A stretch of 46,077 nucleotides of DNA from contig JAYWIR010000172.1 in NCBI GenBank assembly GCA_036172245.1, positions 1 through 46,077 on the forward strand, in the 5' to 3' direction. Shown in pieces: positions 1-37,842 of the stretch. Numbering within the stretch: position 1 is the first letter of the stretch; every line of letters starts with the position of its first letter. The notes beneath the pieces were generated by a model. It was not told where the DNA came from, did not search any database, and saw nothing but the letters and a program-made list of their open reading frames with translations. The DNA is from Raillietiella orientalis (taxonomy: Eukaryota). The translations under genes were made by a program, and so were the position numbers.

Positions 1-47
1 TGGCAGAACTCCCAGACCCATTCCTTAAAAAGGTCCCAGTCCAGGAG
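1..47 (-). mobile_element. ORF2 fragment (EN-RT linker) of a minus-strand LINE that continues left out of the window; target of element A1
   Basis: Reverse complement reads (N)LLDWDLFKEWVWEFC, matching TLQDWDRFKRSIQEFC at 2601-2650. Confidence 0.8.
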
Positions 48-90
48 ATTCCGGAGCGTCGAGCGGACGTGTCTTTTCGTTGCTCCTGAG
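48..90 (+). promoter_or_regulatory. Conserved LINE 5'-terminal motif (ATTCCGG...GAGCGGACGTGTYTTT), putative internal promoter
   Basis: Same motif at the 5' ends of copies at ~7631-7661(-), ~9629-9655(-), ~34622-34655(+), ~42525-42560(+). Promoter function is inferred. Confidence 0.6.
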
Positions 91-141
91 TTCCATTTCC
101 GTTGGTGCTTGTGCGTGGTGTGGGTGGAGGATTAGGCAGAA

Positions 142-1800
142 GTGCCTGATACCACCATCGGTGAGGATCCGGGGGCGATGACCTCATTGCCCCCGGAGCA
201 GATGGAGGTGGGGGCTCCCGCATCAGTGGAGGCTCCCGCCAGCACGGATGGGGCCCCGGCCCTACCCAGGGCTTGGAACGCCGTGGCTGCGGCACCTACG
301 CCAGCGGCTATGGCGGAAATGCGCGCTTACCTAAAGGAGGGGTATAACCCACCCCTTCTATATAAGGTAGGCGGTCTATATTCTCCCGAGAACGCGCGCG
401 CCTTCTCACAGGCGATGCGCGTTCTCGGCGTACAGAAAGAGGAGCTTCTGGCTATGTCCGTCAGAAGCGGGGGTCAATTTGTGGAAGTTATCTGCAAGGA
501 GGCAACTCTTGCGCGGAGAATTCTGCGAACCCCCGTAATTATGGGCAGCCGGAGGCTTCTTTCAATTACTGAAGACCGGTCGTTGATCATTCACCTGACC
601 GGTATCACGTTCCGGATGACGAAGGAGGCCGTCCGGAACCAATTGGAAAAATTCGCAACTGTCCACGCGCTGTGGGGAAAGCCTACTCCTTTTGTCGATT
701 ACGACGGGGTGCTTGGCAGCCTGGGTGCAGCGCGAGTGACGGTTCGCGAAGGGTGTGAGTTTCCACACAAACTCACCGTTAACGGTAAATCCGTTGACGT
801 GTGGTGCGTTGGGAAACCCAAATTCTGCGGCTGCTGCAGCAGCTTTGGTCACCTTAAAATGAGGTGTCCGAGCGTGCAGTGCCAGCAATGCAAACAAGCG
901 GGGCACACCGGTCTGGTGTGCCCCCAAAACACAGTCCGCGTCGTGTCCGCAAAAAACGTAAGATTGCGCGCGGCTGAAAAGAGGAATAAGCTGGCAGCTC
1001 GTGCTGCTGCTAAGGAGGTCACTTCCGCCACCAAGGCGAAGGCCAGCCCCGAGACCCTGGCGAAAAACGCCGAAAAGGTCGAGGGCGAGGATCAAGAGCC
1101 AGGGTGGCAGAAGGTCGATCCCAAGAAAAACTCCCATAAGAAGGGAAAGAACGTGGCGAAACGGAGCGAAACCGCTCTGCGCCGCGAAAAAATTAAAAGC
1201 TGCTGCGTCGTTGTAGAGCGGATTCCCGCCATCGACGAATGCGGCGCTAAAGAACTCGCTGCTGCCCCTGCTGAACCCTCCGTTGACAAAGTCAACAAGG
1301 AGGGGAGCGAGGCGGCGGTGTCCGTCACCGAGCCCACGCTCGATGACGTCGCCTTCGAGCATGCCGCGGAGGAGCTGGCTGCCTCGTTGCAGCCGGTTGC
1401 CCCCAAGGGTGGCAATAAGGCCGTCAGGCGTCCGGCTACCCCTCAGGAGTCGGCCACTTCCGACCCGGAGGTGAAGGCCGGAAACACAGCATCCATCTCC
1501 GCGGCACCCCGCAAAAAGACAGGACGAAAGTTCACAATGCCCCGGAAGATCGTCTCCCCCGACGAAGGGGAAGAGATGGCTTCCGGTAGCGAGGGTGCCA
1601 TGAGCGTGGGAAACTCCCGGGACCCGTCGTCCGAGAGAATTCCACGTTTGGACACGGAGGGGATGGTGAGGATGGAGGCCGAACAGGTACCCCAGGCGCC
1701 TGAAGAGGCCTCCGTCCTCGTTCCGATGGTCCTCGTACCGATGGACCTTTCCTACACCTGCCCCGCGGCAGGTGCCGCGACGCCACTTTCCCAGTTATAA
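142..1800 (+). CDS. LINE ORF1, gag-like nucleic-acid-binding protein (RRM-like region, two zinc knuckles, basic/low-complexity C-terminus)
   Basis: 552-codon open frame with CGCCSSFGHLKMRC and CQQCKQAGHTGLVC knuckles. Position 142 is GTG where paralog A2 has ATG (34735); first in-frame ATG is 178. Confidence 0.88.
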   Translation: MPDTTIGEDPGAMTSLPPEQMEVGAPASVEAPASTDGAPALPRAWNAVAAAPTPAAMAEMRAYLKEGYNPPLLYKVGGLYSPENARAFSQAMRVLGVQKEELLAMSVRSGGQFVEVICKEATLARRILRTPVIMGSRRLLSITEDRSLIIHLTGITFRMTKEAVRNQLEKFATVHALWGKPTPFVDYDGVLGSLGAARVTVREGCEFPHKLTVNGKSVDVWCVGKPKFCGCCSSFGHLKMRCPSVQCQQCKQAGHTGLVCPQNTVRVVSAKNVRLRAAEKRNKLAARAAAKEVTSATKAKASPETLAKNAEKVEGEDQEPGWQKVDPKKNSHKKGKNVAKRSETALRREKIKSCCVVVERIPAIDECGAKELAAAPAEPSVDKVNKEGSEAAVSVTEPTLDDVAFEHAAEELAASLQPVAPKGGNKAVRRPATPQESATSDPEVKAGNTASISAAPRKKTGRKFTMPRKIVSPDEGEEMASGSEGAMSVGNSRDPSSERIPRLDTEGMVRMEAEQVPQAPEEASVLVPMVLVPMDLSYTCPAAGAATPLSQL

Positions 1801-4800
1801 TGCCGGGAATCGCCTCTCGCCGTCGTCTTCTGATCGCCTGTTGGAACGTGAACGGGCTAAGCGACGACGGCAAGAGACGTGACATGGCCGCCACTCTGGC
1901 ATCCTTCGACCTGGTGCTGCTGCAGGAGATCCACGTGATATCCGCAGATCAAGCCCGGGAGATCGAACGGATCTCGGGTGGGCGGCAGTTGTGGCGTTGC
2001 AGCACCGCGAAATCAAGCGGTGTCGCCTTCCTGCTTGGGCCAGTAATCAAGACCGCAATAAAGGACGTTCGGTTCGATGACGCAGGTCGCGTCGGTCAGC
2101 TGACTCTCAGCTGGTCCGACTCTATCGACCTGGTCGTCCCCAACCTATACGCTCCTAGCGGAAACAACGCGTTGAGGGCGAAGGCAAGAAGGGAATTCTA
2201 CCTTGCCCTGAGACGCGATTGGCTGACCGATGCAGGAGTTCGCAAAGCGCACCTGATCGCAGGTGATTTCAACCTGCGCCTGCTTTCACGTGCGCCGGAT
2301 TCACTGAACGACCGCGTCAACGAGTTGTGCGCAGAAATGAACACGCGCAACTTGTTGGCCGGGTACACGGCCATGGAAAGCAGCATCGATCACGTGTAAA
2401 TTGATCAGCACCTATGCTCTCGGGTGGGCAGGCGCGGCAAGGTAGCATCCGAGCTGTCGGACCATGGTCGGATCATGTTCGAAGTGCGTCCGCGCGACAA
2501 GGGCCCTTCCTCGTCAGCGTGGCATCTGCCAGGGTACTGGCTGAAGTTTCCCGACGCGGCGGAACACCTCCGCGCGTTTATTTGGAGCTTCAGGATGCAG
2601 ACACTTCAGGACTGGGACCGCTTCAAGCGGTCGATCCAGGAGTTCTGCGACCAGTTCCCTCTGCACCGCCTATCTACGGGTTTTGGGACCGGGGTCCGTA
2701 ACGAACGAGCCTACCTGCAGGCCCGTCGTTACGCAAGGACCCCTGACATCCGCAGGCTGGCGGAATACAAAGCGGGAGCCGAGAGGCAAGCCTGGCAGTC
2801 CGGATCGGCCAGCGTGCTGGACGATCAGGGCCAGGAGCATTCAGCAATCGCTCAAATCCGCGTCCTACTGCGGAGTTACTACTCCTCCCTGTATGCCAGG
2901 GCACCTCCGGAGAGGAACGTCTCACGACTCCTGCTTTCACAAGGCGCTCCAGCGATCGGGGAACAGGTGAGAAAGACCCTCGCCGAGCCTTTCACAATAG
3001 ACGAGATCCTCTCGACCATCGGAATGCTCAAGAGGCGCAAGACTGCAGCAGAGGACGGCCTGCCCGCGAAGTTCTACCAAACTTTCGCGGCTGAGCTTTC
3101 CCCCCTGGTACAACAACTCACCTTGCTGATACGCAAGACAGGTGACGTTCCCGCCTCGTTTCGTTCGGCAAAGGTGCGGCTCCTCCCTAAGGGAAGAGAT
3201 CTGAGGAGCATGAACAACTGGCGTCCCATCACAATAGAGAATGCGGACGTCAAGCTGATAGTTAAGGTTTCGGCAGAGTGATTGAGAAAAGTCGCCAACA
3301 TCTTGATCAGCCCGGAACAGACATATGCTGTTCCCGGGCGTAGCATGGAGGCGAAACTCTTCCACCCTTCCACCTGGCTAGAGCTCCAACAAGAAAATAG
3401 CTTGGTGCGCAGCTGAAACTCCGGTGCGTGCGCCGGCAAAGGGTCGGATGGTCGAATGGGGGAGGGAGCCCTTGCGGTCGCAATCGACTTGAGGAAAGCA
3501 GTTGATTGCGTCGACCAGAATGTGCTTGTGGAGCTTCTGGAACGCTTGGGCTTCCCGGACTAATTAGTAGCCTATCTGCGCTCCGGCTGGCGTGACGCGC
3601 TCATCAACGTTTCTTTCAGCGTGCAGACCGTGCACGGCGTGCAGGTGCGGCGTGGGATCCGAAAGGTAGACAGTCCTAGCTCGTTGCTCTTTAGCATCTT
3701 GTTTGAGTTGGTGCTGAGGGCGTACAGGCTAACGCAGGCGAACCTGCCGAGCTCTTGTCCAGGAACGCCGTCCTTGACGGCCTATGCTAACGACCTGCTT
3801 CTCGTTTTACCCATGAACACCTTGGCGTCCGGTCTCGAGGATTTCTTTGAACTGATTCGCCTGGGAGCGGGCATGAGTGTAAACCGGAGCAAGAGCGTGC
3901 TCCTACCTATTGGTGCGGCGTGGGGAAGCAGTCCGACTGGATCGGCCTGGGGATCCCGACCGCTCCGTCCACCCAATATCTGTCGTTACGCTGGGAAATA
4001 TCAGCCCAGAGGGAGTGTTGTCGGACTAACTACGGAAGGCGATGAGTGCTCTGAGCCCGTTCCACCATGACAGATTCGTCCTGCCGGAGCGGTCCGCGAT
4101 ATGGAACACCTTCCTTTCCCCTCTCTTGCGTCCATTGGTTTTAGTTTGCTTATCCCTACTCGGCCAAGCACCAGGCGCACAGCCTATTTAATAACGCTCT
4201 GTGGGGACCTGCCAGGTCCCGGATCCGTGTCAAGGACTTGTCGGCTGCGCGTCCAAATGCTGGCTTAGGCATCCTGACGCTGGAGAGAATGAAGTTGCAG
4301 GTGCAACTTGGGATGTTGGGTATGTGCGCCAACCTTTGGTCCACTCCGTAGTGCGCTCCCGCGCGCTTGCTTCTGCGGCGCTGCACAGGCAAAGATGGGC
4401 TTCTTCGCTGCGGCCGCACACGGAGCGCGTCACGAGAAGCTTCGGTTTCCCCTTGAAACCGCTCTACCTGCTCCTGGAAGCCCAGGAATGTATCTCCTGG
4501 CACCCAACGAACTTTGAAGAATGGCGGCAGGAACGGTTGCATGGCTGGGCAAAGCACCAGGATGTTTCCCTCCAGGAACTCCGTTGCGCTCACCTATTTC
4601 CGCACTGTACGGTGAATGAGGTGTGCAACAGGCAGGAGAAATGGACCCGCCTGGCCCTTACCTCCCTCCCCGATGCACTGTCAGCCCTCAGGGCAAGAGA
4701 TGACAGTTGCGAACCGGCGAGATGGGAGGTCGCCTGCACTATCGCAGGAACAACGCGACCTATTGGCGGCTGGAGGACTTGCGAGCTGGCAGACGCCGCC

Positions 4801-5348
4801 ACGCCGTTCCACGTTCCGAAGGGACTCCTTCGGTGGAGTAAACACTGGAGTGTGGTTCCGAAGAACTTGTGGTCCCTCCCTCCTGTTTGAACACTTCTGC
4901 GTTCCCTCTTTCATTGAAGCAGGACGGAATCATGATTGTGCATTGCGGTGTTCACTCCAACCAGCGCGCGAACCTTGTTTCCGGGGGAGTCGTCTCCCCA
5001 AACTTTAAGCTGTGCGGGGAAGTGGAAACGCTCCCGTATCTGCTGCTGGACTTTGGTGCCCTTCTAGGACTGTAGCGGCGGCTGGCCTTAGCTCTTCTGC
5101 ACCAGAGGGACACCGCAAGAGACTTGATGCGCCGCTTCTTCACGGCAGGCGGGCTGCCTTTGGCTGCTGTCGTTGCAGCCGTGTGTTTCACCCGCGCCAT
5201 CGACAAGTTCCACCGAGAGTTGGAGAAGCTGGCCATTCTTCGCCAGCCAACCGGATTAGGCAGGGCAAGCATGTCTTCGGCTCCCGAGTAGGACCACCTA
5301 CCAGATAGCGTGAGGAGAGAGATCGCCGGCATCCATCGTCGTTTCTGA
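1800..5348 (+). pseudogene. LINE ORF2 (APE endonuclease, reverse transcriptase, CCHC finger), disrupted
   Basis: WNVNGL, LQEIH, NLYAP, AGDFN, SIDHV, SDH (APE); EDGLPAKFY, WRPITIENAD, AIDLRKAVD, GIRKVD, YAND (for YADD) in RT; stops at 2397 and 3279 plus later stops and frameshifts. Confidence 0.92.
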
Positions 5349-5544
5349 AAGGAAGGAACGGACTCACCAAAGACCCCTGTCCCCTTCCCTCCGTGTTTTT
5401 CTTTTTATGTTTTATAGTAGTGTATTTGTGGTCCCCTCCCTCCCGTTCCGGACTTTTGGCATACAGTCCTGCGTGTCGGAGATCCCACCCCCTTCGTCTC
5501 TGGTTTTTCCCTTTGTGCAGGAACTGTGTTCCGGGATAGTTTTC

Positions 5545-5568
5545 AATAAACGCCCCGGCCCACCAGGT
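5545..5568 (+). terminator. LINE 3' terminus: AATAAA plus decayed GC hairpin, no poly(A)
   Basis: AATAAACGCCCCGGCCCACCAGGT; homologous termini at 34348-34372(+), 37257-37282(-), 40040-40064(-). Confidence 0.7.
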
Positions 5569-5762
5569 TGATAAACAACCGACCCTTCGCGATCGACTGG
5601 AACTTCTGGACTTCTGCCACGGTGAATACCTGGATTTCCTGCAGGAGGACCTGGTCGAGCTCACGCAGGGTGTCGTTGTATCTCGCCTGTTGCCGTCGTC
5701 GCCCAGCCCGTTGACATTCGAACAGGCCGCGTGAATCGGAAGGCGAGTGGCAGGCCCAGGTG

Positions 5763-7555
5763 TTATCTCTGGGAAAATGGTGTTGCGGCGTTCAACACCT
5801 GCTGGGGCGGGACGCTATGTGGTGGAGGAGGGTCAGGTGCTGAAGGTTCCTGGTTCCCCTCCTCCATGGGTAACGGCGCGCCTAGCGGCTCACCCGAAGG
5901 TGGGGTCGCGCCTACCTGTTAGCCCTCCTCCATGGGGGTGGGCTGTTTGGGGTCGGCGACTGCAGAGGGGACTTCACCCTCCTACTCAGCTTCTTCCGTG
6001 GGGGTGGCCTGCTCCAGGGCTTCCGAACGTGGGAATTCTTCCTCCGGAGTTCCCACGGCGTCGACGGCTTCCGTCTTCTCCTCCTGGCTGGTGGAGGGGA
6101 GACGCCTCCTGGGCTTCTGGGACTTGCGTGCCTATTTCCTGGGCGGTGCCTCCGAAGAGGAGGATGTACTTCCAGCCTTAATCGCACTCATCTGCGGGGG
6201 CGTTTTTTGCTGCAGCTGGCCTTCACACGGCCTTGCGTGAGGGGTTCTTACGTTCCGCCAGTGTGGCCGCGAGCTGCTCCGCCGCCTTTGCGAACGCGGC
6301 GTCCCCGGTATCGACCGGCGCGTCGCGCGGCTCACCCTCTGTTTGCACAGAGGGTTCGCCGTCGCGAGCTTCGGGCACGACGGAAACGGTGAGGGGAGGC
6401 TGGTCGCTCCGGGTGGCATCCTCGGGAACGCTGATGCGCCCCAGTGCTACCGTGCACTCGCGGACGGTTTTTGAGAGCGGAGCAAGTTTTTTCGCCTTCC
6501 CGTCCGTCGTTTTCTCCGCCTTTTTTTCCTTGCTTTTTCTAAGTTCCTTTTTGGGGTCTTTCCTTTGTTTAACCTGCTTCCATCACTACTCCACTTCTGC
6601 GTCCTTTGGAGTTTTTTCTTCCGACGCCTGTTTATTAAGAAGAGGAGATAGCGGCTGGATCCTGCCAGTTTTCCGTTGCGGTCTTTCGAACTTTGCTATT
6701 TTAGCCTGCGCTTTTTTGGTAGCATGCGGAACCGGTGTAAGGCGTTTACGGCACACACGACGAACGTGTCCCGTAAACACGCACAAGACGCCCACAATGT
6801 TCGGGCACCGCTTGCGCAATTGTCCTACTGCATTGCAGTATCCACAGTAACGGGGTTTGGTACGTGGGGAAACCCCGTTACTCTGGTACGTGAGCAGAGG
6901 TCAACGGGTTCATTTGCGACCTCTAATTTGTAAGGTAAGCCACCTCCCTCTTTTACCGTGACAGGCGTTGCAGCCTGGCCACCGAAAAGACCATAATAAC
7001 CTTCGAAAATTGTTGGCTTCGGCCACTACGCGAGCACTTCTCCATGTTTTTTAACTCATCACCAACTGGGAAGCGAGTCATTCCGCTGATAATTCCGGTG
7101 AGACGGACAGCTACGGAGCGGTCCATGGTCACCGACAAGTTCTTGCGTCTATCAACGATCAGGGGGTCGGTGATCAGGAGTTGGGTCAAGGTGGTGTCTT
7201 TGCATACAACCTCGACCCGCTGACCGCCGCTGAGGACGGAGAGCGCATCGAGATCTTGTTCTCTGACATTCGCGGTTTGCAGCGCCTTGGTAAATGCGCG
7301 TTCAGTAAGCCTATCAAACAATGGATCAAACAACCCTACCTGGTATACCAGCGAGGGTTTGTACAGTGCTGCCCGAAATGCCATCTGGTCTGCCAAGGCT
7401 TCGGCGCTGGGCGCTGCCACAATGGCACTCCAAGTCCTCGCCTGGATCGGCGGGGACGATTCCGGGGCGGATGCCCCTGATCCAGTAGGCTCTGTGGGTG
7501 AACTAGCCTACCCCACACCTACTCCCATTGCGATGTCCTCTGGCATCGTAGACAT
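5763..7555 (-). pseudogene. ORF1 of B1, frameshifted
   Basis: MSTMPEDIAM start, AAPSAEALADQMAFRAALYKPSLVYQVG, knuckle remnants; stop within TAACA at 5761-5765. Confidence 0.85.
6846..6882. repeat. 13-bp perfect inverted repeat created by a local templated inversion
   Basis: AGTAACGGGGTTT-(11 nt)-AAACCCCGTTACT; absent from paralog B3 at ~43270-43310. Confidence 0.85.
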
Positions 7556-7661
7556 CGGACACCGGCGATGTTAAAAATCACAAACACTCGTTAAGGAAAC
7601 TCTCCTCAAGCCTCGCTGTGGGAGCTACGGAAAAACACGTCCGCTCTTGACGAGCCGGAAT

Positions 7662-8390
7662 TGGGGTAGGTACTCGCAACGAAAAAGCGTATTCATACAC
7701 CTGTCGTTAAGCGAGGATCACCAACGTCCGTCGCTTGGCCGAGTATCGAGCCGGGGCTAAGCGCCAAGCCTAACAGTCTGGGCCTCAATCCTGCTGGACG
7801 ACTAGGACAGGGAACACTCGGTTTTGCCGCGATTCGACACATCGGGAAAAAATTTTATTCCTCCCTGTACGCCAGGGAGCTTTCGGAGCGAGACGCCTCG
7901 CGACTGCTGCTCTCTTCCTCTCCTATGGCCTGGGTTCTGCGGAGCCCCGGCCATAGGAGAGGAAGAGTAGGGAAGCCTCGTCGAGCCTTTGACTAGCAAT
8001 GAAATCTTCACCGCAATAAAAAAACTGGAGAGGCGGGAGGTACCAGAAGAGGACAGCCTGCCCGCGAAGTATTTTCAAAGCTTCGCTGCAGAGTTTACCC
8101 CCTTGGTGCATAAGTTGACACAGCTGATCCGGGATGTAGGCCATGTTGCCGCCTCGTTGCAGTCAGCTAGGATGAGGCTCCTTCCTAAGGAAGGATACCT
8201 CCCCAAGTTGAACAACTGACGTCCGATCACAGTCAAGAACACGGACGTCAAGTTGTTTGCGAAACTGTGGGCTGCGCGGCTAGGACAGGTAGCCGAATCC
8301 GTTCTTAGCCCGGAGCATACTTATGCTGTTTCTGGGTGAAGTACTGAGGCTAACCTTTTCTTCGCCAGAACATGATTTCATGTGCAAAGC
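7662..8390 (+). mobile_element. LINE ORF2 fragment (linker to RT N-terminus), target of B1
   Basis: GVGTRNEKAY...RRLAEYRAGA...EDSLPAKYFQSFAAE...RPITVKNTD; colinear with 45255-45965. Confidence 0.88.
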
Positions 8391-8399
8391 GAAGTCAAA

Positions 8400-9655
8400 G
8401 AGAATAAAAGATCACCGCGGCCTTTGTGGGACACGAACTTTCAGAGGCAATTCCGAGGGCGTCCATGCACAGTTTCCCATGTTTTCCCCTGGACGCGGAA
8501 ACGGACGCATACAATCCAGCAGCCTTCATTAAGTGCGTGGTCGCACTCTTGGGCTGCATCGAAGGGGACGATTTGCCCCCAGGGCTGCATGGTATTTTTA
8601 CCGTCTGCGCGGCTGTCTAGGATGGTGACTTCCCCGAAGCAACCGCGCTCTTTTTTGCGGGACTGCCACTCGATGAGAGCCCGCCCTTCGCGCAGGATTT
8701 CACCCGTGGCACAACGGGGGATCTTTTCGGTTCGAACGGGGTCAATTGTTAACAGTTTCTCGCCTGCCGTTTGCGCTTCAGCTCTGCTCACTCTTTAATG
8801 GAGTGGCCGAGCAGTTTGCCATAGCGGCAGTTGCGAGAAGGGCACGTCCACGGAAGGTGGCCCTCTGCGCCGCTAATGCCGCAAGCCGGTCGCTGACCGG
8901 CAAATTTAAGGTGGACGATCGCATCGCCCATCTTCAATTGCGTAGGCATGTCCCTCCGATCTGCTATGGTGACTCGCGCCATGGCAAGTCTGCTGTGGAG
9001 AGATGCAATCCTTATGATCGGATTGTCTGCTCTCCACAGCGCGTGCACCGTGGCGAATGCACTGAGTGCAGCGACGAGCACGCGATCGGGCGTGTCCACC
9101 TTGACTGCGGACAATCGAGCCACGAACGACTGGTCCATGGCCGACGGGTCCAACTCCTTCCCTCGTATGTTAAGCGGGGTGCGGAGAAGGCGCTGGACTA
9201 GGGATGCTTCTTTGAAGTGCACCTTTTAGAATCCTAGCGCGTTAACCGGCATGACGGCCAGGAGGTCGTCCTGCCGGGACCCGACGCGCAAAAGCTTGTC
9301 TTAGAGAATTTCTCCGACCACGTCGTAGATAGAAGCACTCATCGAATAGCAGAGAGCATTCTTGTGGCCATTAGATGCATATGCCTGCAGCTTCGCTTCG
9401 TCTTACGGTGCTCGGTTTGCTGCCGTCGCCTTGACGACGGTGGCGAGGCTTCTCTCCGGTTGCGAGACATAGGCATCAGAAACGGGATGAACATCCGGGG
9501 TAGAAACTCCGTTGCCCGCTGCAGTCTCCACATCCATCTTCTCCGACACGGGCGCCGTGAACATTCTAGCGAACGCACGTGGGCACACCACAAGCACAGA
9601 AGTCGTAAAGGAATCGAGCTCCTCGAGCAACACAGAACACGTCTGTCCAGCGTCT
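8400..9655 (-). mobile_element. Divergent LINE copy C, 5' half (5' motif plus decayed ORF1 starting ~9565)
   Basis: MFTAPVSEKMDVE...RSLATVVKA...AYASNGHKNALCY...QDDLLAV...KEASLVQRLLRTP...FATVHALW...CGISGAEGHLPWTC; 5' motif GACAGACGTGTTCTGTGTTGCTC. Confidence 0.82.
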
Positions 9656-9820
9656 TCTTTGAGCGGTTTCCCGCCATCAGCGTACGCGGCACAATGAAAC
9701 TCGCTTCTTCCACTGCTCAACCCTCTGTTGACAAAGTCAACAAGGAGAAGAGCGAGGCGGAGGCGTCCGTCATCCATCTTACGCTCGATGACGTCGCCAT
9801 TGAGCGCGCCGTGGCGGGAT
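9653..9820 (+). mobile_element. Subfamily A ORF1 internal fragment, target of copy C
   Basis: VFFERFPAI...PSVDKVNKEKSEAEASV...TLDDVAIERA matches 1207-1370. Confidence 0.85.
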
Positions 9821-12800
9821 AGTCGTTTTCGATTTCAAGGTAAGAACCTATCGGATATGTCAGCATACGTCCTTTTGAGTTAAGTAGTCTCCGATGGGTT
9901 CTCTCGTCATTCTCGAGTGGCGAGTGCAGCATAGTATTCGATGCTGTATGTGGTTTCACGCGAGGATGGCATCTTCTGCACACTGGTGAAGAAGAAACGG
10001 CGACCACCACTACGATACTACGCTTGAAAGAAGCGTCCATACACCCTGGTCGGGCGCTTGCTCTTAAAAGAACCGCTGCTTCAGCTAAAGTTGGAATTCC
10101 AAAGAGTCAACCCTTTTTGGTTTTGCTGTGTCGACGTCGATTCTCCGTTCAGTGTACGCTGGTACATTTGTGCGCCTTACAGCTTTCGCAATCGATCGGA
10201 TGAGTGCGCTCCTCCTAAGGGGAAGACTGCAGAGAACTTTTCCCCCAGAGAACATCCCTCTTAGCGGCATCTATCGTGAAGGTCGCCGCTCCGTAATCTG
10301 TGCATCGCGTTGAAATGGAGCCATCGTATTGAGTTTCCGTATCGCAGTATCCGATATTCTTGGGTTCCTTCAAAATGGATACGGAAGAAAAAAAAAAGCA
10401 GTAATGTGCACTCGTAGATGAAAGACACCGTAGCTCATCTAAAGCGGAAAAGTCTTCAGGTAAAGTGGAATTCGAGGGCGCAAGGAGACATCGGCATGCC
10501 GGTAATCGAGGACAAATCGCCATGCTTAAGGACTTGGAGTACGTGGCTCGTTACGTGAGGCAGCGGAGCGAATGGCCGTTAATATTCCATCGGGCGTCTG
10601 CTGCCTACGCAGGATCTTGACTGCATGCAGCCACGCTGTCGCTGTGTTTTCCACAAATCCACATTGGGAAATTGCTTGAATGAGAAACCGACGGACGCCG
10701 GAAAGAAGATCGCGATCCTTGCGAACGGAGCCCTCTGTTTTAATCAAAAACAGAAACACGCTTTCGTGCAGCAAGATAATTCTAGCCGCGAGGTAAGTTC
10801 ACAGGTTTGCACTGCCGAAGACAGGTGCATCTCGGGAAAAGGCATTAAAACGCGAACAACTGCACCAATCCTCGAAAGCATCTTTGAGAGCTTTTCACAA
10901 TAGGAAATCTTTGTGGAATGTTGAACGCCCCAAAGCGAGGATTTGCATTCTGTGTGGATCCAGCGGTTCCGCCGAAGACGTCTCCTGGAGGCACTTCTCT
11001 GCGTTGAAGATAGCAGCAACAGCAGCGGAGCTATTCCATCAACCGAATTCTGCAGGATATGCGTATGCAATGTTCCACACTCGAACGCTTTCTTGTATTT
11101 CCCTGAGAAGCGAAAACCGCGTACGGAAGAAGAAGAATAATTCCTAATTCACAATGTAGGCAGGATGACGTTCGTGGCTTACAGACTTGTGCAGATCACG
11201 GTTTCTTCAGAAACGCTTTCGTCACGAAGGGCCAAGAGAGAGAGTAGGTTCGTGATGAGAAAACACACGCTTACAAATTTTTGTTCTCTTGTGCTCCCTG
11301 TTTGCTATTTTCGGTTCTCATGTTTGCTAGAACTCGGTGCTATATTCGTGGATGGCATCAAATGCAACGTCCTCCGACGGTGTGTTCGTATTCTGTATGT
11401 CTCTGTAAAGAAGAGTGGAGCAAAACATTCTTTGCAATAGGAGCGCGCATTTCTTAGATCAATCGGAATGATTGTTGCCGCACACAGCCACGAATCTCTT
11501 AAAGCTCCGACGAAAGTCTTTTGTCCCCATCATGCTCACAGACATGTGGTAATCCGTTGCGAACAAGTTTTGGCACTTACCAAAGAAAGGGTCGCAGTGC
11601 CAGTCCCGTAGTCAGGGATAATATCGATAACAACGTCTACCGAACGCAGACGCACGATGTTTATCTTGAAGTTGTCTGTCAGACGTATCCCAAGCCTCAC
11701 GGGTGTAGCGAGGACCCTGACCTCTCCTCACGAGCTATGCGCGTACCCCTCCATCGCTGTCTCCTAGTCCTTGCACGATCCGCACATGTCGGGTATCAAG
11801 AGCGTTTGCCAACGGAGTCGTCTGTCTTCCTTTCACTGATCGTCCCATGCAGTCACAATTGGCTGCGAGCATTTTCACGGGATGACAAGATGGCCTCCGC
11901 CTATCAGACCATGGCTGGCGGCACGTGCAAGCTGCTCCCCGTGGACGTGTGTGCCAGTTCGCGCTGTTGCGCAACAACGCAGAAAAGATGGGCTGCGTTC
12001 TTCACAAACAAGATTCGCCGGTCACGGGTGTCTGCACTGCAGGCGCAAAGTGCGGGCGCGTTTGCCTGCCAGGTGTGCGAGGTGCGTGCGCACTCTGCAA
12101 AGCGAATCCATGAGGCAAATCGGTGATCCTTATCGCCTTCCGGAAGGCGACTGTCTCTATCAAGCTGGTGCGCAGCAGCACACACGTGCACGACCCTGCC
12201 AGCCAAATCACACGCGGGTGAAACGCCTTCCTGGCGCAATTATCAATTCGCCCCAACCCACAAGCTTGCCTTAGGAACGGACGGTTGCCTTCGCAACTCA
12301 CTCGGTCCCCGGGTTCTATGCGAAAAGACGCCTTTTTGTAAATTACGTCAGTGAATTCTCCTTGGGCTGCCTCGAAACAACGTATTTTTTTTCGAACCAC
12401 AGAGGTCCGTTTAGGTGAAGTTTGTATGCTTTTTGCGGTCCTTTGAAGGCTGAGATTTCGGATTACGCGGCTTCTTCGGCTAAACAGGACGAGCGAATTC
12501 CGTTTTCTCAACGTATGGAAAGAAGGAAAATCGCCTTCACGAAATGGTACCTCGCTCCTGCGAGGGTTCACGGCGCTTTTGCGGGGGCGGCTACTGCAGC
12601 CTTCTTGCGAAGGATCAGCAGGCGTACGAGACCGACGGGAAGAACCCTTCCGTACTGTGCAAGGTAGGCATCCCATATTCTTTCTCGCTTCTTCCTCTAG
12701 GGGCTCAGAAAGCGGAACATCTCCAAGGATGTGGTAGGTAGTCATTCTGTCTGCGGGAAGAGGGCTGCAGCTTGTAAAGTTGAACTGCAAAAGCGCCTGG

Positions 12801-13329
12801 GCTCTCTCGACAGCTTGCAATTGGCTTGCCGAAGGGCGTGTGACGTTGTTCTTCGTCACCAAAGAACAAAGGTGCCTCCTTCACACCTTTGACCGCAGTT
12901 CTTTTTAATTATTGGAGCTCAATGGCAGGTGAATTCTTTAGAAATGGGAGTGTTTCTGCTGCATCACTGGAGTGGGAGACGTCTTAGGCCGTAGCTTCAC
13001 GAAGGTACTCACAGACGTGTTCACGTTCTGCCTACAAGCGCAAGGGGCTGACCAGTGCTCTGAAACTTCAAGTGTGCTTCCGGATGTCTGTGTGTCTCTC
13101 GTGTTTGAAGGCTGCCATCATTCTTCCCAGCTGTCAACAAAACATGCTACTCTTTTGCATTTCGATCTTCTGTGAGTGATTCACGTGATCTTCACAGAGC
13201 ATATTAAGCAGATCCATATGATCGTATTGATGCGGCTGCTATGATGTCACTGCTCTCTCAGCACCTGCGAAGTCGCGTTGCCGGTAAAATTATTTGTCTA
13301 TGGTAGCCATGAAAGATGTGCGCTTCTGC

Positions 13330-14560
13330 TGTAAAGGTTTAGGTGTCTAGCTGATTTTCAAGTGCCGTGAGTGGATTTAGCTCGTCCTAAACGAATGATA
13401 CACTTCCGACGGCAAGAAACGCGAGTTACACAGAAGGTGTTTCGAAGGGCTGTGGAGCGGATAGTTGGCTGAGGCAGTTGTGCACAGAGCCAACCTAATA
13501 GGTGGGGATTTCAACCTTACGCTGTTGTCAGGCGCACCTTATGAGCAAAAGCACGTCACAACGAGCTTTTAGGGACAGTGGTCGCGCTTAACATGTTGAA
13601 GAGAGCATCGAAAATGGATGACAGTGTGGATCACACGTTCCTTGATCATGACTTGCTTCCAAGTCATTGTCAAGAAAGTAGTCAACAAAAAAGGGTAGAA
13701 TCCATCCTGTCTTAGCGTACCCGGCTTGAATTTGAAGTGCTTATGCGCAGGAGACCTCCGTCCAAGGAGCGGTATCTCCCAACGGACTGGTTAAATCTTC
13801 CAGTCTCGGAGAAAGATCTTCTCTAATTCCTGTAAGATTTCACCCACCATAATGTCGTTAGCAGATGCTGCAACCCAGATTGCGCCGCTTAATGGACTTG
13901 TGCGCTGGAGCGAGCTAATCGGAATACCGCTGGAGGAGGTGAAGTGGCCTCCAAAGCATTGGAAAAAGGGCATCCTCCTTTTGAATTGTCAGGAGACGGC
14001 GCTGCAAGTGCTGCATTGTGCTCCTTTGCAGAGCGCATCTCTCTCAGTGGGCGTCAGGGAACATGGATGCCAATTGTGCAGGGTGCGGGGAACGGGAAAA
14101 CTTACCTCACGTCCTCATCGAGTGTGTCGCCCTACGCCTAAGGAAGGATCGACACTCGTCAATTGTGAACACTTTTGTGGGGGACCGAGAAGACATTTTC
14201 CGTCGCCTCTAGATGCGAAATGCCCTGCCAGCTACTGCGTTTATTGCAGTTCTTCGTTGGATACGCAGAAACCTGGAGAAGTGGACTCCGTCGAGGAGAG
14301 AACACCAAAACCGGATGCAATTCATTGGGCAGTCATCTCCATGTAGAGGGTTTCCCGATGGCGTTGGCTAAGAAAACATTTAATGGCATTTGTCCTAATC
14401 CAAAATTGGATGCAGAGGCCTTCTCGCGGCGTACCTGATCTCTTTCTTTCCATCCCCACCTCACAAAACTTGTTTCCTCCCGGAGGTTTTCTCTCTTTCG
14501 TTCGTTTTTGGTTTTCCCGCCTCCTTCGTCGGTGTAGACGACCTCATCGGCTTGCAAGTC
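13330..14560 (+). mobile_element. Old, internally deleted LINE copy (EN C-terminus fused at ~13853 to ORF2 C-terminus and 3' UTR)
   Basis: NLIGGDFNLTLLSG and DDSVDHTF, then LADAATQIAPLNGLVRW and CAGCGERENLPHVLIEC; RT missing. Confidence 0.82.
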
Positions 14561-17500
14561 GGTATGGACAAGTGAAACAAGATAATCAGAACCTCATGTT
14601 ATGTCTGAACAAAACTACAAAAAAGACCGAATTTTATTCTCAAGTTTATTGTAAAATTTGAGTATTCTAATCCCTGGCTTATCCGGTTGGAAAATCATAA
14701 TCCGTGGAATGGGAGAGTTCCAAGCAATATTATCGATGGTCTGCGAGCAGCCGCTGCTGCTTAAAGCATGTGTGGGAAGAGCCTGTTTTGCAGTGTAACA
14801 CTCGCTCGTCCAACGGTACAAGAGCATCTCAGACGTCCTCCGGCTGGCTAAGCACTGACCTGGTGCGTAGAATAACACCTGACAGTCTGAATTGGCCATT
14901 TTATTGGGAGACCAGTGCCGGATTGCTACGGTACGATAGTCGTTTCATGCCAACGTACTATTGTTCCCTTGACTTCACACCTTTTCTGAAGGAAGATTTT
15001 CCTCACCTTTTGCTGCCGGTTGACGTCTAGGCGATAAGGGATATATACAGATTAGGTAGTCTCGACAAGCCTTTCGCGATCAGTGTCTTCATCACCGCTA
15101 TTGAAAATTGAAAGGGAGGGAAGGTACCAGGCGAGAACGACCTGCTTCTTTGCTGTGTCCGTGTTTCACAGCAGAGTTGACCACCCTGGAGCAGAAGTTC
15201 TCTTAGCTGATCCCCGACGAAAAGTGGGCGCTGTAGCTGCAATTGGTTTGCTAGTGCGTGCTGTTTGCGACACCTCCGCAGGAGCTGAGGTAGCTCACGT
15301 AGTCTTGGTACAGTGCCAAGCCCTTGATGACAGGAGTTGGCGTTACTGATGCTGCATTCGGAAGCAAAGCACGTTTCCATCATTTGACACGTGAAACTGC
15401 GGTTGCCAACAAGATCGATGCGAAGAAAAGGAAACGTTACTGAATTTCCTGTTAGGCTGTGTTGCACTCCCTTTCTCTGAGGATAGTTTCTCGGCGACTT
15501 CAGGAATCCCGGCTGGAGACTGAAGAGATATTTGCAAAACGCCTTTTCGCGCGTCCCGCACTACCTCCAGCTTTTTTCATCGCAGTAAGAATAATTATTT
15601 GTAGTAATGTACGTGAATTTTGGTTCCGAAGTATATAGTGGTGTTGGTTAGGTTGGTAGTTGTGAGTGTGGGTTTGTGAATTATTCGTTAGAATGGAGTA
15701 GCATTCATGGAATGATCGTCAATGGGGTTGGGGAGGAATGGAGTGATACGTATTTTGTTTTGCATAATAGGTGTTTTCTGTTTCTAAGATATGTAATGGT
15801 TGTTTCTTTTTTGATTATGGTGTATAAATAGAAATATGTGACCTTTTTGTATTTGCGGTGTGCTGGCAGCATGGTGCACAAACAGAAAAGATAGAAATGG
15901 TGAAGCATCCATCCACTTATCAGCAATCTTCTTGATCACTTTCTCGAAATGGTCCCAATTGTGAGTGATACGTAAACAACTAAGCCTAATATGAAGGATG
16001 CTGAGATCGTCTCTTGAGAAATGTGTGACCACTTTTACTGTCACCTCTCGCCCCCCGGTGAAACTTATTTCTCCATTTAGCATTTTGTTGGTTTCTTGGT
16101 TTCGGGTTTTTTCTTCCCTATTGCTCTAGAAATGAAGGTCATCCCTCTACGTGGCGGTCATGACAACTTGCGTGCACATGATGATGCAACCAACTGCTTC
16201 GCCTCAACTGAGCACTGAACATTACTGAAGAATATAGTGTCCCTGCAAAATCGTGTTCAACACTTCCAGATGAAGCTAACGTCTTTGCTGATGTCCCTGC
16301 TCTGGATTCTGACCTTTTCGTTCTTGTCCCTTCCAAAGCAAAGAGTGCGGGCTCGAGAGATGCTCCTGTTGCATACTCCACACAAACCGCTTTCTGGCTC
16401 GCGAGAGCTATCTTTATATAAGATCACTTGCCCTGTAGCGGTACTGATGAGGCAGAGCAATGCCACGACGTACACGCGGGGCATCGGGTGCGGTTTCTTC
16501 GGATACGGAGCGTTTTCCATACCAGTGGGTAATTCTCCCACAAGGCAGGAGTGCGTTGATGACGATCCGATTTCATCTGCACAAGGAACCATCGCACGAA
16601 AGCAGCCATTCTTCTCGCCACGAAGGCGACCGATGCGTACTCAGCCGAGGTGCCAGCCTGAATACAGCGTTTGTACGCATGATAATTACCTTCATAGCGG
16701 TTGCTTTCTCGCTACAAGAACTGGCAAAGGATATTGGAAGGGCTCAATATTCTGCTGATCCATCATTCTACTTAATACTTCCGGAACGACTTCCCTCTTT
16801 GCTGCCTGTCCGCCTGTCCCACCAGCCTACAGCACTGCTTGCTCGTCATCGCCTTCTCTCCTTCTCCAGTAACAGCGAGAAGAGAGCTCATCGTTGACCA
16901 ACGAGTGCTGAAGGAGCTGGAGCAGCCCTGCGGATCGGTCGCGACCTCTGCAAGCGCACTGCTGCGAACGTAATTCTCGTTCTTTGTCCAAGCGTCCGTT
17001 ATGTAATTCGTACATGTTCGCACACGATTTTTCACGTTGCTTCCACGTCTTCTCAATATCGATATATTGCTGGTAGCACTCTTTACAGTTCACGACATAC
17101 TTTTCGTTTCAATTGTAAATCGCCAAAAACTTAATTAAATCGAAAATTTCGAGCATCGCATTTTCTTGTGTCCTCCCTTCGTTTCGGGAGCCTTCTCTCC
17201 GATCTTCTGTTCCTGTTTTATGGGACCGATGTCCCCAAATTATCGGAATTTTTAAGAAATGTTTCAGGGCAACAGGGTGGGAAAGCACCGCATTTTGAAG
17301 TGAAATGTAAAGAAGGGAATTCCCTTTGTATACAGACGCTTCAGTCGTTACATTCCGACGCCATCATCATCTGTTTAGGATCTTTTATTTCTTCTTCATA
17401 AGGATTCTATGCTTTAAGACATCGTCTACTAAACAAACACCATAGAGTTCGCGTCTTTGCAAGTGATCTTGTTGGACGTGTCAGCGCATTCCACTTCTAC

Positions 17501-23100: not shown

Positions 23101-25000
23101 AAGTCTTTACTTTGACGGAAAATAGGAACGTGCAGATCCCGTGAAAAACAAATAATATGTGTTCCCCCTCTTTGGTGTGCCAATGCATCTTTGCGCATCC
23201 GTCTAAGTATTCATTTCTTTGCGACTCCCAAATTGAAATTTTCCATGACTTTGAATGCTTTTTCTCGGAAGGCTTTATTTCGCCGTTTTCATCACAAACC
23301 ATTAAATTGGGAATCCCACCTTTAGGACATCCCATGATTCCGCCAATCGCGTCGGAACACTTTATAGGACTCTTCACGACTAGCATGCTGCGAAACACCG
23401 ATACGCGAATACAGGAATCTTTCACGAGCCATCCAATGACCACATGGATGATTTTCTTTGCTACCATTGGAATCTTGTATTCCTATGTGCTAACACTTAC
23501 GAGGGTGGATTCTGTTTACAGTACTTCTTGCGCGAGAATCACGGATACGTTTGCAAGTGAGCAAATGCAGCAAAAAGCGCACATTCGTCTTCAGAATGCA
23601 TACAGACCTACTTGTACGGGTTTCTTAAGAGATCATTCAAGAAATGCATTTCCAGGTGCACATTTCTGAGTAATGTTTCAGCAGAATCTGAATCGTGTAT
23701 TCCATGTTCCCTTTTGGGAAAGTGTTGATACGCACTGATGAGGGATTGATGCAGCGCCTCATGAAGTTTTCTCGGGCACTACCTCTTTGTTTCCAAGAAT
23801 CACAGCTTTTTAAATGAACCATCATCCGAAGCGTCTACTCAATTCAGCACTGCTGTGAAAACACCATATTATTTAATTTTTTCCCTCTGGTGTAATCATG
23901 CAAGCAAGACGAATTCCTGGATGCCGCAATTACAAAGCTGGGTTTTTGCGGTGTCCCCTTTATAATGCGGGGTAGATGGGGCTCGGGACTGCTTCTTGTA
24001 ACAAGTCCACTGTATAAAGTAGACTCAGGAGATGCTTAGAAGTGAACTGTGTGAACGGCAGCGCTCGGGTATGAGAGAAAGTGTTGGCGTTCGAATCGCA
24101 CACTTTGTACGTCTCAGTCGCAGACTTGCTGCGACATGGGCATACCATTCCGAGGAAGCCAGCCTTCTAGCTTTTCGTTGAGAAGCAGACGATGACCAGG
24201 AGAGAAAAATTCGTATGCTGCATTGAGTTTTGTGTTCTCTTTTGGAATGAAATGCAGTCCATCCTTAATGAAATCACGTTCAAATCTTCTGTTCACCCGC
24301 GTACCAGATGACTGGAACGAATTCTATTTTTGATGTACATAAATCTTTCCATGTACTTCGCAACTGTTCAATGTAACTCGAGGAAACAGCTGAATGGATA
24401 ACCTGATGATATACGCACCACTTCGTATTGATCTGAATGAGTCATCCAGAAAGGAGAGCCGAGTAGGCGCCAGAGAGCTGCGATCATCGCCCCATGCGCC
24501 CAGCCGCTGCCAATGAAGACGTCACTCTTCCCGCTTCGTGCAGTTTCTTTCTTCCTTAAAGGAGGCAGGCGACTTCTCACTTTGGTAGTTGAGTAGCACT
24601 GCGTGAGATTAGGGAGCGCAGCTCTGCAGCACGTGGTGTAAACGAGTTCTGCAGCTGCTTGCGTGGGCTGCTCATCCTATCTCCTGTGGCGGGTGTCGAC
24701 AGTGCCTCTTTTTCCGGAGCCAGGCGTACTCCGACCCGCTACAGCCATAAATCTTTTCGCACACTGAAACAGCTTCGTGGATCCTGGCAGTGCAGTTGGC
24801 CAAAATTAGTTAGATTCAGGTGTTCTCTTGAATCAAAGAAACCATTTGCTGCAGCTGATGGCCGCAAAACCTCAGGATAATCTCCTTCGTACGGGAATCG
24901 GCGAAAATACTTTGCATGAGGGCGCTCTTCCAGAGAGACACTTCTTACTGTGCTCACCAAGGCGTGTTCCATTACTTCACCACAAGGGCAAGCTCTCTAA
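20200..25000 (-). mobile_element. Highly degenerate Ty1/copia-like LTR retrotransposon gag-pol remnant
   Basis: Eroded motifs in copia order on the minus strand: knuckle-like CPCGEVMEH (~24980), VFIGSG protease-like (~24510), KLHEALH (~23760), GIPNLMVCDENGEI integrase core (~23300), CIRWILENEVRALLV (~21800), NSPVV, WIHPHGF (~21425), *VDM (~20945), GQPTK (~20225). No LTRs or PBS found. Confidence 0.6.
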
Positions 25001-28000: not shown

Positions 28001-29099
28001 CATTCGTCGAGCGCACACGGAAACGTTGAATTTTCTGAAGGAACAAAATAAGAAAGGATTTAGAAATCATATCTACTTGTATTTATGGGCAACTGCTGCA
28101 CCCATGGACAAAAAACTTCTAATCAGCGAGCTTATGTTTTTATCCCTGCTCGGCGTAGCAACCTCTGCTCCTGGAGACGTCTCCGATACGATTTTTGCCA
28201 CAGGGAATCCGTCAGGCCCAACTGTTGAAATTTGCATCAGAGTCTATTCACGTTCAAGGGTCATCCGTAATGTAAAACCTCTTTTCGCTATCGTGGTCAC
28301 TCTTGGAATTAAAAGCCGTTGCTCACCCTGGGGGATCGGCCACAGGGAGGGCGAGAAACACGCTGGAGTCTCGGGCACAACCTGGTGAAAAGGCGCTTCT
28401 TATAGAGCACGACTCAACATTCCCAACCACCAGAGCGTATCCCATTGCCCGAGAATGTGGAGTTGCAGCGTTCTCCAGCTCCCCCGCTCCTCGGCTCTTA
28501 GCTGCTTCTGCACCTCCCTCCATTCGGAAGAACCACTACCCCACCGGCTGAACGTCTTTCTCTTAGCGCAGGCCGGACTGAGAAAAGCTTTTGCCTAAGT
28601 GGTGGAAGAAAAAACAAACAAACTCGAGTGGTCACTGGTCATCGAGAAGAATCAACAATCCATCGAGGAAGTCCCGACGGAGAAGCTATTTATCACTTCG
28701 GTCTGCGCAGCACTTGGTCTGCTCCTGTTCAAAGAAGACCTGGCTCAGCAAGAGCTGGAAGTACGAAGGACTGCTTTGAACGTAAGGCCTTACGGTAGAT
28801 TGACTTGCTTGTTACATTGTGTGTTTTGAAGAACATTTCGATGTCTCTGAAGTAACTGCATGTGGGCACAAAGGAAGCGGATCTCAATACAGGGTGATTC
28901 GCTTCTTTCCCCGCAATATCATTCAGCGAAGCAAATCTGCTAAAGTAATTCCGAAACAGTGGGATCTTCAAAATCTATGTGATGCACCACGAAATACGCA
29001 TATCTAAAACAGTCTAAAACCCCTTGAGAACTGGGATCACTTGATATTTCGGAATTTCACTGGAAACTGTGCAATGAGAATCCACGAAACACGAAATAA

Positions 29100-31450: not shown

Positions 31451-32149
31451 TATTCAAGCTTACAGCTTTTCTACCCAAACCTCTTTATGTACAAAAATGC
31501 GTTTGATATCAATACACCAACTGTTCATTTTTCATCCTCGCAACCAGAACCAGGCCACCGGTAACTTCACTTACTTTCTCAGCACCACCGATACCCCTTT
31601 CACCAATCTTCACATAGACATGAACACGCTCCGCTGCAAAGTCAAAATTTTAGGTAGATTGATCCAGAAGAACACGAGTCTGAATTTCTGGGTATCCTTG
31701 TTTGAATAAAAATTGCTTTTCAACTTGAAATGTTCAAATCCATTCTGTAAAGAAAACTTTAATTTTTTCTTTCTTTTGTGCATTCTTTAATGCCAACTTT
31801 ACGGCAAAGTAAGAATTCCTTATTTTCTAGGGAAGATTTCGTCGGTGACGAAGCGACGTTCTTTGGGCACACCACTTTGGTATGACCCTTCTCGCCACAA
31901 GTGGGGCATAGTGCGTCCAGGCATCTTTTTTTGAGATGCCCGAATGTCTTTCGAATCCCGCAAAACTTTGGTTTACCAACTCACCTGACGTCGACGAACT
32001 CGCCTCCGAGCTGGAGTTTGTGGGGAAGTTGGGAACCATTGCGCGAAGTCACGCGTTTAGGGACACGCCCACTGAAAACGGCCCTGACCCCGAAACGGTT
32101 GGGTTTCCGCCACGACATATGAATCACGGCGCATTTTTCAATATCGCTT

Positions 32150-34372: not shown

Positions 34373-34625
34373 GACACACTTCGGCTGCAGCCGAGCATTC
34401 CTGGCCAGCGTAATCGAGCAGACAATCCGCTCCAGACTGCCAAACCTGGCGCTCGGCCCTGGCCTTGTACTCCGCCAGACGCTGGACGTCCGTGCATCGG
34501 GAGAAGATACGCGCCAGCAGATAGGATCTCCTGTTCGCGACACCCACCCCGAAGTCTGGGGGTAGCAGGTGCAAGGAGTACCGGCAGCAGAACTCGCAGA
34601 GCGATCTTTTTAAATTGTCGCAGTC
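34373..34625 (-). mobile_element. ~250-bp ORF2 linker fragment trapped between two plus-strand insertions
   Basis: DCDNLKRSLCEFC...LPPDFGVGVANRRSYL...WQSGADCLLD...AAEVC, equivalent to A1 ~2607-2862. Confidence 0.88.
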
Positions 34626-37256: not shown

Positions 37257-37842
37257 ACCCGGGTAAGCCCGGGGCGTTTATTTAAAAAAGCTCTCTGTGA
37301 TTCGTGGTATAAGGCCCCACTGCTGCCTTAGACAACCGACCTGTCGGGACACCGGGACGCAGCCCGGAGTGGCACTACCCGACAGCGAAAGGGGATGGGG
37401 TCAAAACAAAAAGAAAAATAAAAGAGATAAACAAACAAAAAAAGTTTGGTGGGCAGGTAATGGATCACCGGAAGCTGTGAAAAGGGCCAATCTGTCGAAG
37501 GAAGCCCTCGAGGTCTGTCCGCATATTTCACAGATGGGGCCATCGAACAGCTCACCGCCAGCAGCGTACTGCGTGCTCGATGACTTCCTTCTCGTTCCAA
37601 CCTTCATCTTCGCTGTTGGCATCGCTCCAAGCCGACACGATGCGTCGAACGCAGCACATGACTGCGAGGGCTGTTGCTGGCTGCAGGGCGTCCCGCACGA
37701 AGAAGTGGCGGAAAAAGTCTCTGGGTGCAGTGCCCGTAGGGATTCCTAGGGTCGTCCCGAACCGTTCCCAAAGTGGCTGGAGGGCATCTCAATCCAATAT
37801 AAGGTATGGGAGCGACTTCCGCTCCCCGCACCTGGCACACTG
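37257..37842 (-). mobile_element. LINE 3' end fragment (CCHC finger, 3' UTR, terminus) inserted in A2
   Basis: CARCGERKSLPYLILD; terminus AATAAACGCCCCGGGCTTACCCGGGT. Confidence 0.88.

Follow-up and report, generated by a model that had tools for sequence, protein, structure and literature searches.

How do retrotransposons come to lie inside one another, strand against strand, and does such an arrangement reflect a single address at which all of them insert? We address this question in a 46,077-nucleotide (nt) stretch of contig JAYWIR010000172.1 (assembly GCA_036172245.1, Raillietiella orientalis; hereafter the window), whose positions 1-9820 carry five layers of genuine L1-group long interspersed nuclear elements (LINEs) in alternating orientation. 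The original prediction had read here a full-length element, A1 (+), followed by the 5' half of B1 (-), a 3' part of open reading frame 2 (ORF2, +), the 5' half of C (-) and an A-type ORF1 fragment (+), and alignment confirms all five pieces. Our preferred explanation, which we hold with a probability of about 0.65, is that positions 1-9820 are the centre and the right arm of a nest that grew through successive rounds of target-primed reverse transcription, in which sibling lineages insert at fixed coding sites of one another, and in which A1 later became a hybrid.

Judged by their domains, the window elements are L1-group LINEs, that is, retrotransposons without long terminal repeats (non-LTR), of the APE-RT type. 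Their ORF2 encodes an N-terminal APE endonuclease and then a reverse transcriptase (RT; Pfam Exo_endo_phos 4e-10, RVT_1 5e-14), and a separate ORF1 lies upstream, measuring 554 codons from stop to stop in A1. Our comparison set is the right-hand cluster (32149-46077, mixed strands) with the copies E, H, A2, F, B2, A3 and Bc; the zf-CCHC match in the ORF1 of Bc is weaker than the Pfam cut-off (E=0.002), and the knuckles align across copies. The nearest outside protein is the metagenomic P0026 (66% to A1), whose RT is intact and finds its best solved match in human L1 ORF2p (E 1e-39 vs 7e-17 for R2). An RT tree of 93 rows, none of which is a named Tx1 reference (FastTree), unites P0026 and the window copies in one long-branch clade (support 1.0) without a resolved placement.

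Amino-acid identity in ORF1 is 62% between A1 and A2, 46-47% between A and B, and 26-28% between C and A, B or K (an ORF1 piece described below), so that the lineages can be separated by ORF1. Four 5' ends start with GAGCGGAC (at 61+, 7646-, 34635+ and 42540+), and 5' termini are kept by five inserts. All five 3' ends close in a small hairpin, which is preceded by an AATAAA-like motif in four of them, and no poly(A) or simple-repeat tail was found at any of the five.

The left nest begins with a fragment of a host, H0 (1-60, -), which holds the 5' end of A1. It is the start of an ORF2 3' half in the linker between endonuclease and RT, begins at the site that we call S1, and aligns with A1 2591-2650, also in translation; the first 60 nt of the left arm that had been predicted, the 3' half of a minus-strand host, are present. 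Its lineage signal is flat, with 32-33 of 46 positions identical to each of four references, and A1, A2 and Bc are each at least as near to H0 as H is. A1 follows (61-5570, +). The prediction that it is full length with an open ORF1 holds for its size and for the reading frame, but the element looks mosaic, with a switch near 3633. Its 5' part (61-3633), of the A lineage, comprises the 5' terminus, a short 5' untranslated region (UTR), the open ORF1 with CCHC knuckles (136-1797), the APE endonuclease (1800-~2500), the linker and the N-terminal half of the RT, with stops at 2397, 3279, 3414 and 3561; it is sister to both A2 (67.1% over 136-2690) and A3 (80.3% over 2677-3630). The 3' part (3634-5570, the breakpoint being approximate) probably belongs to another, older lineage, Z, and contains the C-terminal half of the RT, the C-terminal domain, a pyrimidine-rich 3' UTR, AATAAA and the terminal hairpin, without poly(A).

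Outward from A1 lies the 5' half of B1 (5571-7646, -), which has its own 5' end at site S2, an ORF1 and endonuclease codons 1-~65, and is interrupted at site S0 by the 3' end of A1. It is 74.9% identical to Bc. The next layer, X (7647-8412, +), runs as an ORF2 3' half from the GFG motif at S2 to the variable loop of the RT and ends without a 3' terminus. X shows 63.6-70.1% to A1, A3 and Bc and is about equidistant (70.1% to Bc, 67.8% to A3). The original prediction had proposed trees for all layers; those obtained join Bc and B1 in ORF1 at 99% and split A1+A3 from Bc+X at 100%, placing X in a lineage other than A.

The 5' half of C (8413-~9650, -) has a probable 5' terminus at ~9648-9651, a UTR of ~80 nt and a distant ORF1; it is broken at 8413 and has no endonuclease. 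Its 5' UTR aligns with the 5' ends of A1 and B1 at levels reached by 0.4% and 0.3% of random controls, while no alignment to A2 or Bc was found and a hidden Markov model of the four other 5' ends missed it. The X/C joint (8412/8413), at which we found no terminus motif, reads as a deletion, with no 3' terminus on X and no endonuclease in C. The outermost layer, Y (9650-9817, +), is the remainder of an A-type ORF1, truncated at its right end, which matches A1 1205-1372 at 134 of 168 positions and hosts the 5' end of C. The insertion of C into an A-type ORF1 is supported by this one joint, with moderate strength, and C meets Y within ORF1 (A1 coordinate 1205, site S4) and not within ORF2; here and below, an A1 coordinate is the window position of the aligned A1 base. 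The view that C does not sit in Y was dropped once the 5' end of C was located at the boundary of Y.

We then asked where these elements insert. Across the whole window 10 intact LINE ends can be placed, and all 10 adjoin related LINE coding sequence. Nine of them are antisense to their host (one-sided binomial 0.011), and seven fall in two spots of 18-25 nt. S1 (A1 coordinates 2591-2608) holds the 5' ends of A1 and A2 (+) and the 3' end of A3 (-), together with that of an old insert spanning 13857-14690. At S2 (2669-2693, at the GFG motif) lie the 5' ends of B1 and Bc (+) and the 3' end of F (-). The remaining three sites are single cases: S0 (1993, endonuclease codon ~65), where the 3' end of A1 lies in B1; S3 (2860), where the 3' end of E (+) lies in H (-); and S4 (1205, in ORF1), where the 5' end of C lies in Y. 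Uniform simulations on 5.5 kb never produced four ends within 25 nt together with three within 30 nt (0 of 2,000,000), and those on 1.7 kb did so at a frequency of 4.3e-5, with the reservation, which weighs against our reading, that these windows were picked after the data had been seen. The 8-10 nt beside each 5' motif may be element-derived, and the 5' joints are uncertain by that much.

The four intact ends within 1-9820 occupy four positions (S1, S0, S2 and S4). What is shared is therefore a habit, namely antisense insertion into the gene of a relative, and not an address. The original prediction had inferred a targeting mode shared by the subfamilies; this stands for the antisense nest and for inserts in other lineages, but not for a common site. 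Nor is an old conserved mode at one spot supported, as S1 and S2 are discrete and sort by the lineage of the insert. Three A-type ends lie at S1 (A1 5', A2 5', A3 3') and B-type ends at S2, and in both cases where one lineage recurs in both clusters (A at S1, B at S2) the site tracks the lineage of the insert.

Insert and host, on the other hand, differ in lineage wherever both can be judged: the 3' end of A1 lies in B1, B1 in X, C in an A-type ORF1, A3 in B2 (+) and Bc in A3. The predicted placement of A in B and of C in A is borne out for the 3' end of A1 and for C, with the difference that this 3' end is likely of another lineage than the 5' part of A1. A strict reciprocity of A into B and B into A was considered and dropped, as X falls outside the A type and H forms a lineage of its own. 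B1 and Bc have their 5' ends at an identical distance in nucleotides from GFG, yet their two hosts are no sister pair (A3 joins A1 at 100%, X does not), indicating that these are independent insertions and not one duplicated joint. When 5' joints are set against the 3' joints of other copies, the overlap is ~8-18 nt at S1 and 14-25 nt at S2, which resembles a target-site duplication. The predicted mirror image of the right-hand cluster holds for orientation and for the joint of the B 5' end with GFG (5580-8360 vs 44561-41846, BLAST 72%), but not for the other joints.

At S1 and S2 we also noted a possible self-avoidance by synonymous codons, in very small numbers: the S1 codon, for Leu, is CTT in the two A-type copies and CTC in the hosts B2, H0 and H and in the unoccupied centre Bc, and the S2 codon, for Phe, is TTC in Bc and in H, where S2 is empty, and TTT in the hosts A2 and A3 and in the unoccupied centre A1.

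The sole sense case is an old decayed copy (13161-15586, +) that carries a 5'-truncated insert (13857-14690) at S1. This insertion fits the use of either end of a staggered cut, and the insert is old. Its apparent 6-nt duplication is not significant by itself, with a score that does not surpass those of 25% of random pairs. Recombination that removes same-strand neighbours could enlarge the antisense excess, but could not create fixed sites. Near this copy lies a weak ORF1 remnant (12531-12865).

Several points weigh against the targeting part of our explanation. The window does not contain, for any element, both flanks at one site, so that no target-site duplication of a nest layer is seen. 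S0, S3 and S4 are single cases, and the idea that each lineage has its own site rests on A (three ends) and B (two ends plus F, which is placed in the B lineage by its site alone). The sense insert at S1 is not A-type by its 3' end, which is sister to that of E. Finally, the centre of the right-hand cluster, Bc, carries 3.1 stops and frame changes per kb vs 0.4 in its host A3, which argues against a simple age order. The same rough counts give 0.3 per kb for A1 136-3278, 6.2 for A1 3279-5380 and 6.1 for B1 (where one counted frame change is the ORF1/ORF2 boundary), and 10.7, 4.4 and 0 for X, C and Y, so that the predicted outward rise in decay is seen as far as X but not beyond.

The second part of our explanation concerns A1, whose flanks do not match: in host coordinates the 5' flank begins at 2591 and the 3' flank stops at 1993, a mismatch of 598 nt. 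B1 stops at 1993 and not near GFG, the host at 1-60 starts at 2591, and the two are not halves left by a single cut. We consider it likely that A1 arose by a crossover between two layers of like strand that stood two steps from each other, and that Z, the older of them, had entered B1 at S0. What we observe are the anatomy of the layers, the positions of the joints and their clustering, the bias in orientation, the hosts of other lineages, the switch of ancestry in A1 and the shortened segment of the endonuclease; that Z was a layer of its own, the recombination and the order of insertion are what we infer. A1 and A3 agree at 34 of 47 informative sites left of 3633 and at 202 of 479 to the right (MaxChi switch 3633, permutation p=0.002). 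Beyond 4240, A1 shows 27-37% amino-acid identity with A3, E, F and P0026, vs 43-51% between A3 and each of E, F and P0026. Measured against P0026, A3 runs at 73-84% from 2860 to 3830 and then at 51% (E 45%), while A1 falls to 29%. Disablements number 4 in the first 3.5 kb of A1 vs ~10 in the last 1.7 kb (p=0.004; rough counts). Contig pieces from sequencing run X1, which is possibly the source of the window itself (8 of 183 pieces listed), point the same way: the three listed in the 5' part differ from A1 at 20/364, 12/225 and 10/411 positions (2-6%), and the three in the 3' part at 24/196, 57/422 and 50/438 (11-14%).

Against this hybrid origin it must be set that one contig piece (3533-3728) spans the inferred switch at 88%, which would also fit a breakpoint at another place or a mosaic that predates this copy, that the triplet test cannot name the recombinant, and that A3 has a 400-nt deletion of its own. 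These same points lend some weight to a doubtful alternative, in which A1 is a single intact element, with ~600 nt of its target deleted at insertion or afterwards, and either A3 is the mosaic, its in-frame deletion joining two elements, or the C-terminal part of the A family evolves fast. However, the switch lies ~190 nt upstream of the deletion in A3, A3 stays steady relative to P0026 where A1 drops, the 3' part of A1 is more decayed than its 5' part, and the A-type ends at S1 agree only if the 3' end of A3 is A-type. A3 itself (40250-42529, -) has one stop in 2.3 kb, its in-frame deletion removes ~140 codons, and it is less decayed than the Bc inserted into it.

Taken as a mechanism, our explanation would start from a long-branch L1-group LINE lineage whose sibling lineages each nick a fixed coding position in their relatives and insert antisense. 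From the outside in, Y would have taken C at S4, C would have taken X at a site since lost by deletion, and X would have taken B1 at S2; B1 would then have taken Z at S0, Z would have taken H0, and H0 would have received an element of the A type at S1. The RT genes of this A element and of Z run on the same strand, and a crossover or deletion between them may later have removed the intervening layers and left the hybrid A1. Priming would occur on the sense strand of the host, aided by short pairing with the tail-less RNA end. The conserved coding motifs of relatives would provide a multicopy, harmless target, and every insertion would also disable a competitor.

In the endonuclease, from the GDFN anchor to the catalytic Asp, we count 38 residues in all three measurable window copies and 52-72 residues in all 34 outside LINE proteins with both anchors (35 aligned, one without anchors), i.e. 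the segment is 14-34 residues shorter in the window. The missing part aligns with the TW...SR segment of relatives and may, by its position, be equated with the L1 hairpin T192-S202, the betaB6-betaB5 hairpin described as important for target reading in the portion of the L1 study available to us (PMC1950540). Loss of a known specificity hairpin weakens a simple model in which the endonuclease reads the site, and this too counts against our explanation. An AlphaFold model of the endonuclease resembles human L1 (PDB 1vyb; Z 16.8, root-mean-square deviation 3.1, 181 aligned), tied with exonuclease III homologues; its predicted local distance difference test score is <50 at 185-197, where the hairpin is neither shown nor excluded.

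We give an even chance to the site being set mainly by the ORF2 protein through surfaces other than the missing hairpin, and clearly less to guidance by RNA; one candidate surface is a few additional residues that follow the YAP motif and are not the same in A and B2. We favour the protein as main determinant, as the available part of PMC4494074 states for Tx1-type elements; the same paper offers a precedent both for targets set by the endonuclease and for insertion in antisense at fixed places within another transposon.

In a version of the same nest that we regard as possible yet doubtful, the site is inherited through RNA: transcription beyond the tail-less 3' end would yield a read-through tail of antisense host sequence, which would pair with the nicked sense strand of another LINE at the homologous position and prime the RT. 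This would cover arbitrary lineage-specific sites, the fixed antisense orientation and hosts only 58-75% alike in pairwise comparison, as well as the absent poly(A) and the missing hairpin, and it has published parallels, in that read-through R2Ol RNA annealing to its target raised retrotransposition (PMC6530143) and pairing was proposed as an extra filter for L1 (PMC1950540), both according to the sections available. On the other hand, no donor-derived bases were detected in the last 12 nt of four hosts (a comparison of low power), sense insertion at S1 is not predicted, and the published role of such pairing, as far as those sections describe it, is to assist the nuclease and not to replace it. 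It seems unlikely that these elements form a guild of LINEs living inside one another's genes that lost the hairpin because the read-through tail specifies the site by pairing; if so, the landing site would be inherited in cis and reprogrammable through the 3' flank, making this a naturally RNA-guided LINE. Quite improbable is a single old conserved mode for all subfamilies, antisense and near GFG, with the remaining joints due to later deletions. S1 and S2 do lie ~70 nt apart in one linker and hold 7 of the 10 ends, and 5' motif, 3' hairpin and antisense bias are common to all lineages, but S0, S3 and S4 join element termini to hosts 170-1460 nt from GFG, and S1 and S2 keep apart by insert lineage.

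The mirror pattern could also stem from an old inverted segmental duplication or rearrangement instead of independent insertions, since BLAST runs through the joints, not only at the B1 joint given above but also between 281-2686 and 34856-37249 (68%). We consider this very unlikely: the hosts at matching joints are not sisters (A3 goes with A1 and not with X, at 100%; H0 is no closer to H), the 5' joints of A1 and A2 lie 10 nt apart, and the host trees largely refute a duplication. For the outer layers there is a further, tentative reading in which X (ending at 8412) and E (starting at ~32149) are one element split by a 23.7-kb segment, so that both nests lie in host H, and C and Y are not layers of this nest. 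X stops and E starts in the same RT loop, with residues summing to ~28 vs 26-30 in intact copies (counted by eye), and the two are similarly decayed relative to P0026. This loop is poorly conserved, however, the breaks at 8412 and 32149 show no duplication or terminal repeat, the pieces at the segment ends, C and K, are of different lineages (26%), and the 5' joint of C is compatible with ordinary nesting.

Beyond the left nest, host H (34375-34634, -) carries two insertions 260 nt apart, A2 at S1 and E at S3, forming a branched nest, and has no stop in 86 codons. K (31765-32148, -), a middle part of ORF1 that shares 42-47% of its amino acids with A and B, abuts E head-to-head, and no terminus lies at their joint. 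At the joint of F (3' piece, -) with B2 (ORF1, +) at 37800-37865, the 5' UTR of B2 and most of F are missing, a further collapse in the nest. Between the clusters lie an isolated decayed remnant of an ORF2 C-terminus of the same superfamily (24542-25105, -), a weak 3'-UTR-like match (26584-26777, -) and a plus-strand ORF of 271 codons without a Pfam match (27573-28388), whose minus strand resembles a decayed coding frame. No Pfam match at the cut-off was found in 39 scanned of the 59 ORFs listed for this interval, and no Rfam match in the window, which is repeat DNA of eukaryotic type. A search of sequencing runs for the window returned one DNA run (share 0.09) and no RNA run among those listed. 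Among the 8 listed of its 183 pieces, none bridges a nest joint or extends beyond the left edge of the window. A metagenome scan found no close relative, the 5 loci returned being 25-38% identical each.

Self-nesting LINEs are known from algae and fungi. Zepp of Coccomyxa C-169 and ZeppL-1 of Chlamydomonas are L1-group LINEs that insert into existing copies and build GC-rich nested clusters (PMC3446292, PMC8226300, PMC9940879). As described for these systems, the window LINEs insert into LINE copies (10/10 termini), and their nests are richer in guanine and cytosine (57.6% at 1-9830 and 58.4% at 32148-46077) than the interval between them (47.5%). Zepp/ZeppL clusters are further characterised by there being one on each chromosome, at its centromere. 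In the passages available, the Zepp and ZeppL arrays are described as tandem and as consisting mostly of the 3' ends of copies truncated at 5', C. reinhardtii having just one ZeppL family, whereas the window inserts often keep their 5' ends, lie antisense (9/10 joints), come from several lineages and occupy lineage-linked coding positions. Cnl1 of Cryptococcus likewise prefers insertion within itself and forms nested arrays, but these are tandem, of its own family and subtelomeric, and the accessible text does not mention fixed coding sites (PMC9942834).

Closer in targeting are the Tx1-clade LINEs, which enter other transposons: Tx1 in Tx1D, Tx1-Mar in Mariner-N4_AMi, and Tx1-8_Crp and Tx1-4_AMi in LTR elements; within one host, different families favour two separate positions, one of them entered in antisense and the other in sense (PMC4494074, as far as its available text goes). 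Like Tx1-Mar, the window LINEs use fixed positions of another transposon in set orientations, and they share the clade's preference for a target sequence, with 7/10 termini in two spots in a small sample. The hosts of the Tx1 elements described there are DNA transposons or LTR elements and not sibling LINE genes, so that no mutual nesting results, and in our RT tree the window lineage stands apart from the fish and turtle proteins. With the endonuclease of human LINE-1 ORF2p it shares the fold, but differs from human LINE-1 in its shortened hairpin segment and in having no poly(A) tail.

We found no report of mutual antisense targeting of LINEs by LINEs, in a literature search that left most subscription journals and Repbase outside, so that absence is not established. 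In the accessible parts of the papers cited here, sequence-specific LINEs target ribosomal RNA genes, small nuclear RNA genes, microsatellites, telomeres or other classes of transposons, and the arrays built by self-nesting LINEs are tandem and of a single family. In comparison, sibling lineages inserting backwards, each at a different fixed spot, in one another's genes would be a natural series of near-identical integrases with different targets, making it testable how APE-type LINEs change specificity, the more so without the hairpin of L1. The window adds an example with four sites in one nest, and would add one of a nest that collapses into a hybrid element as a route to new LINE families.

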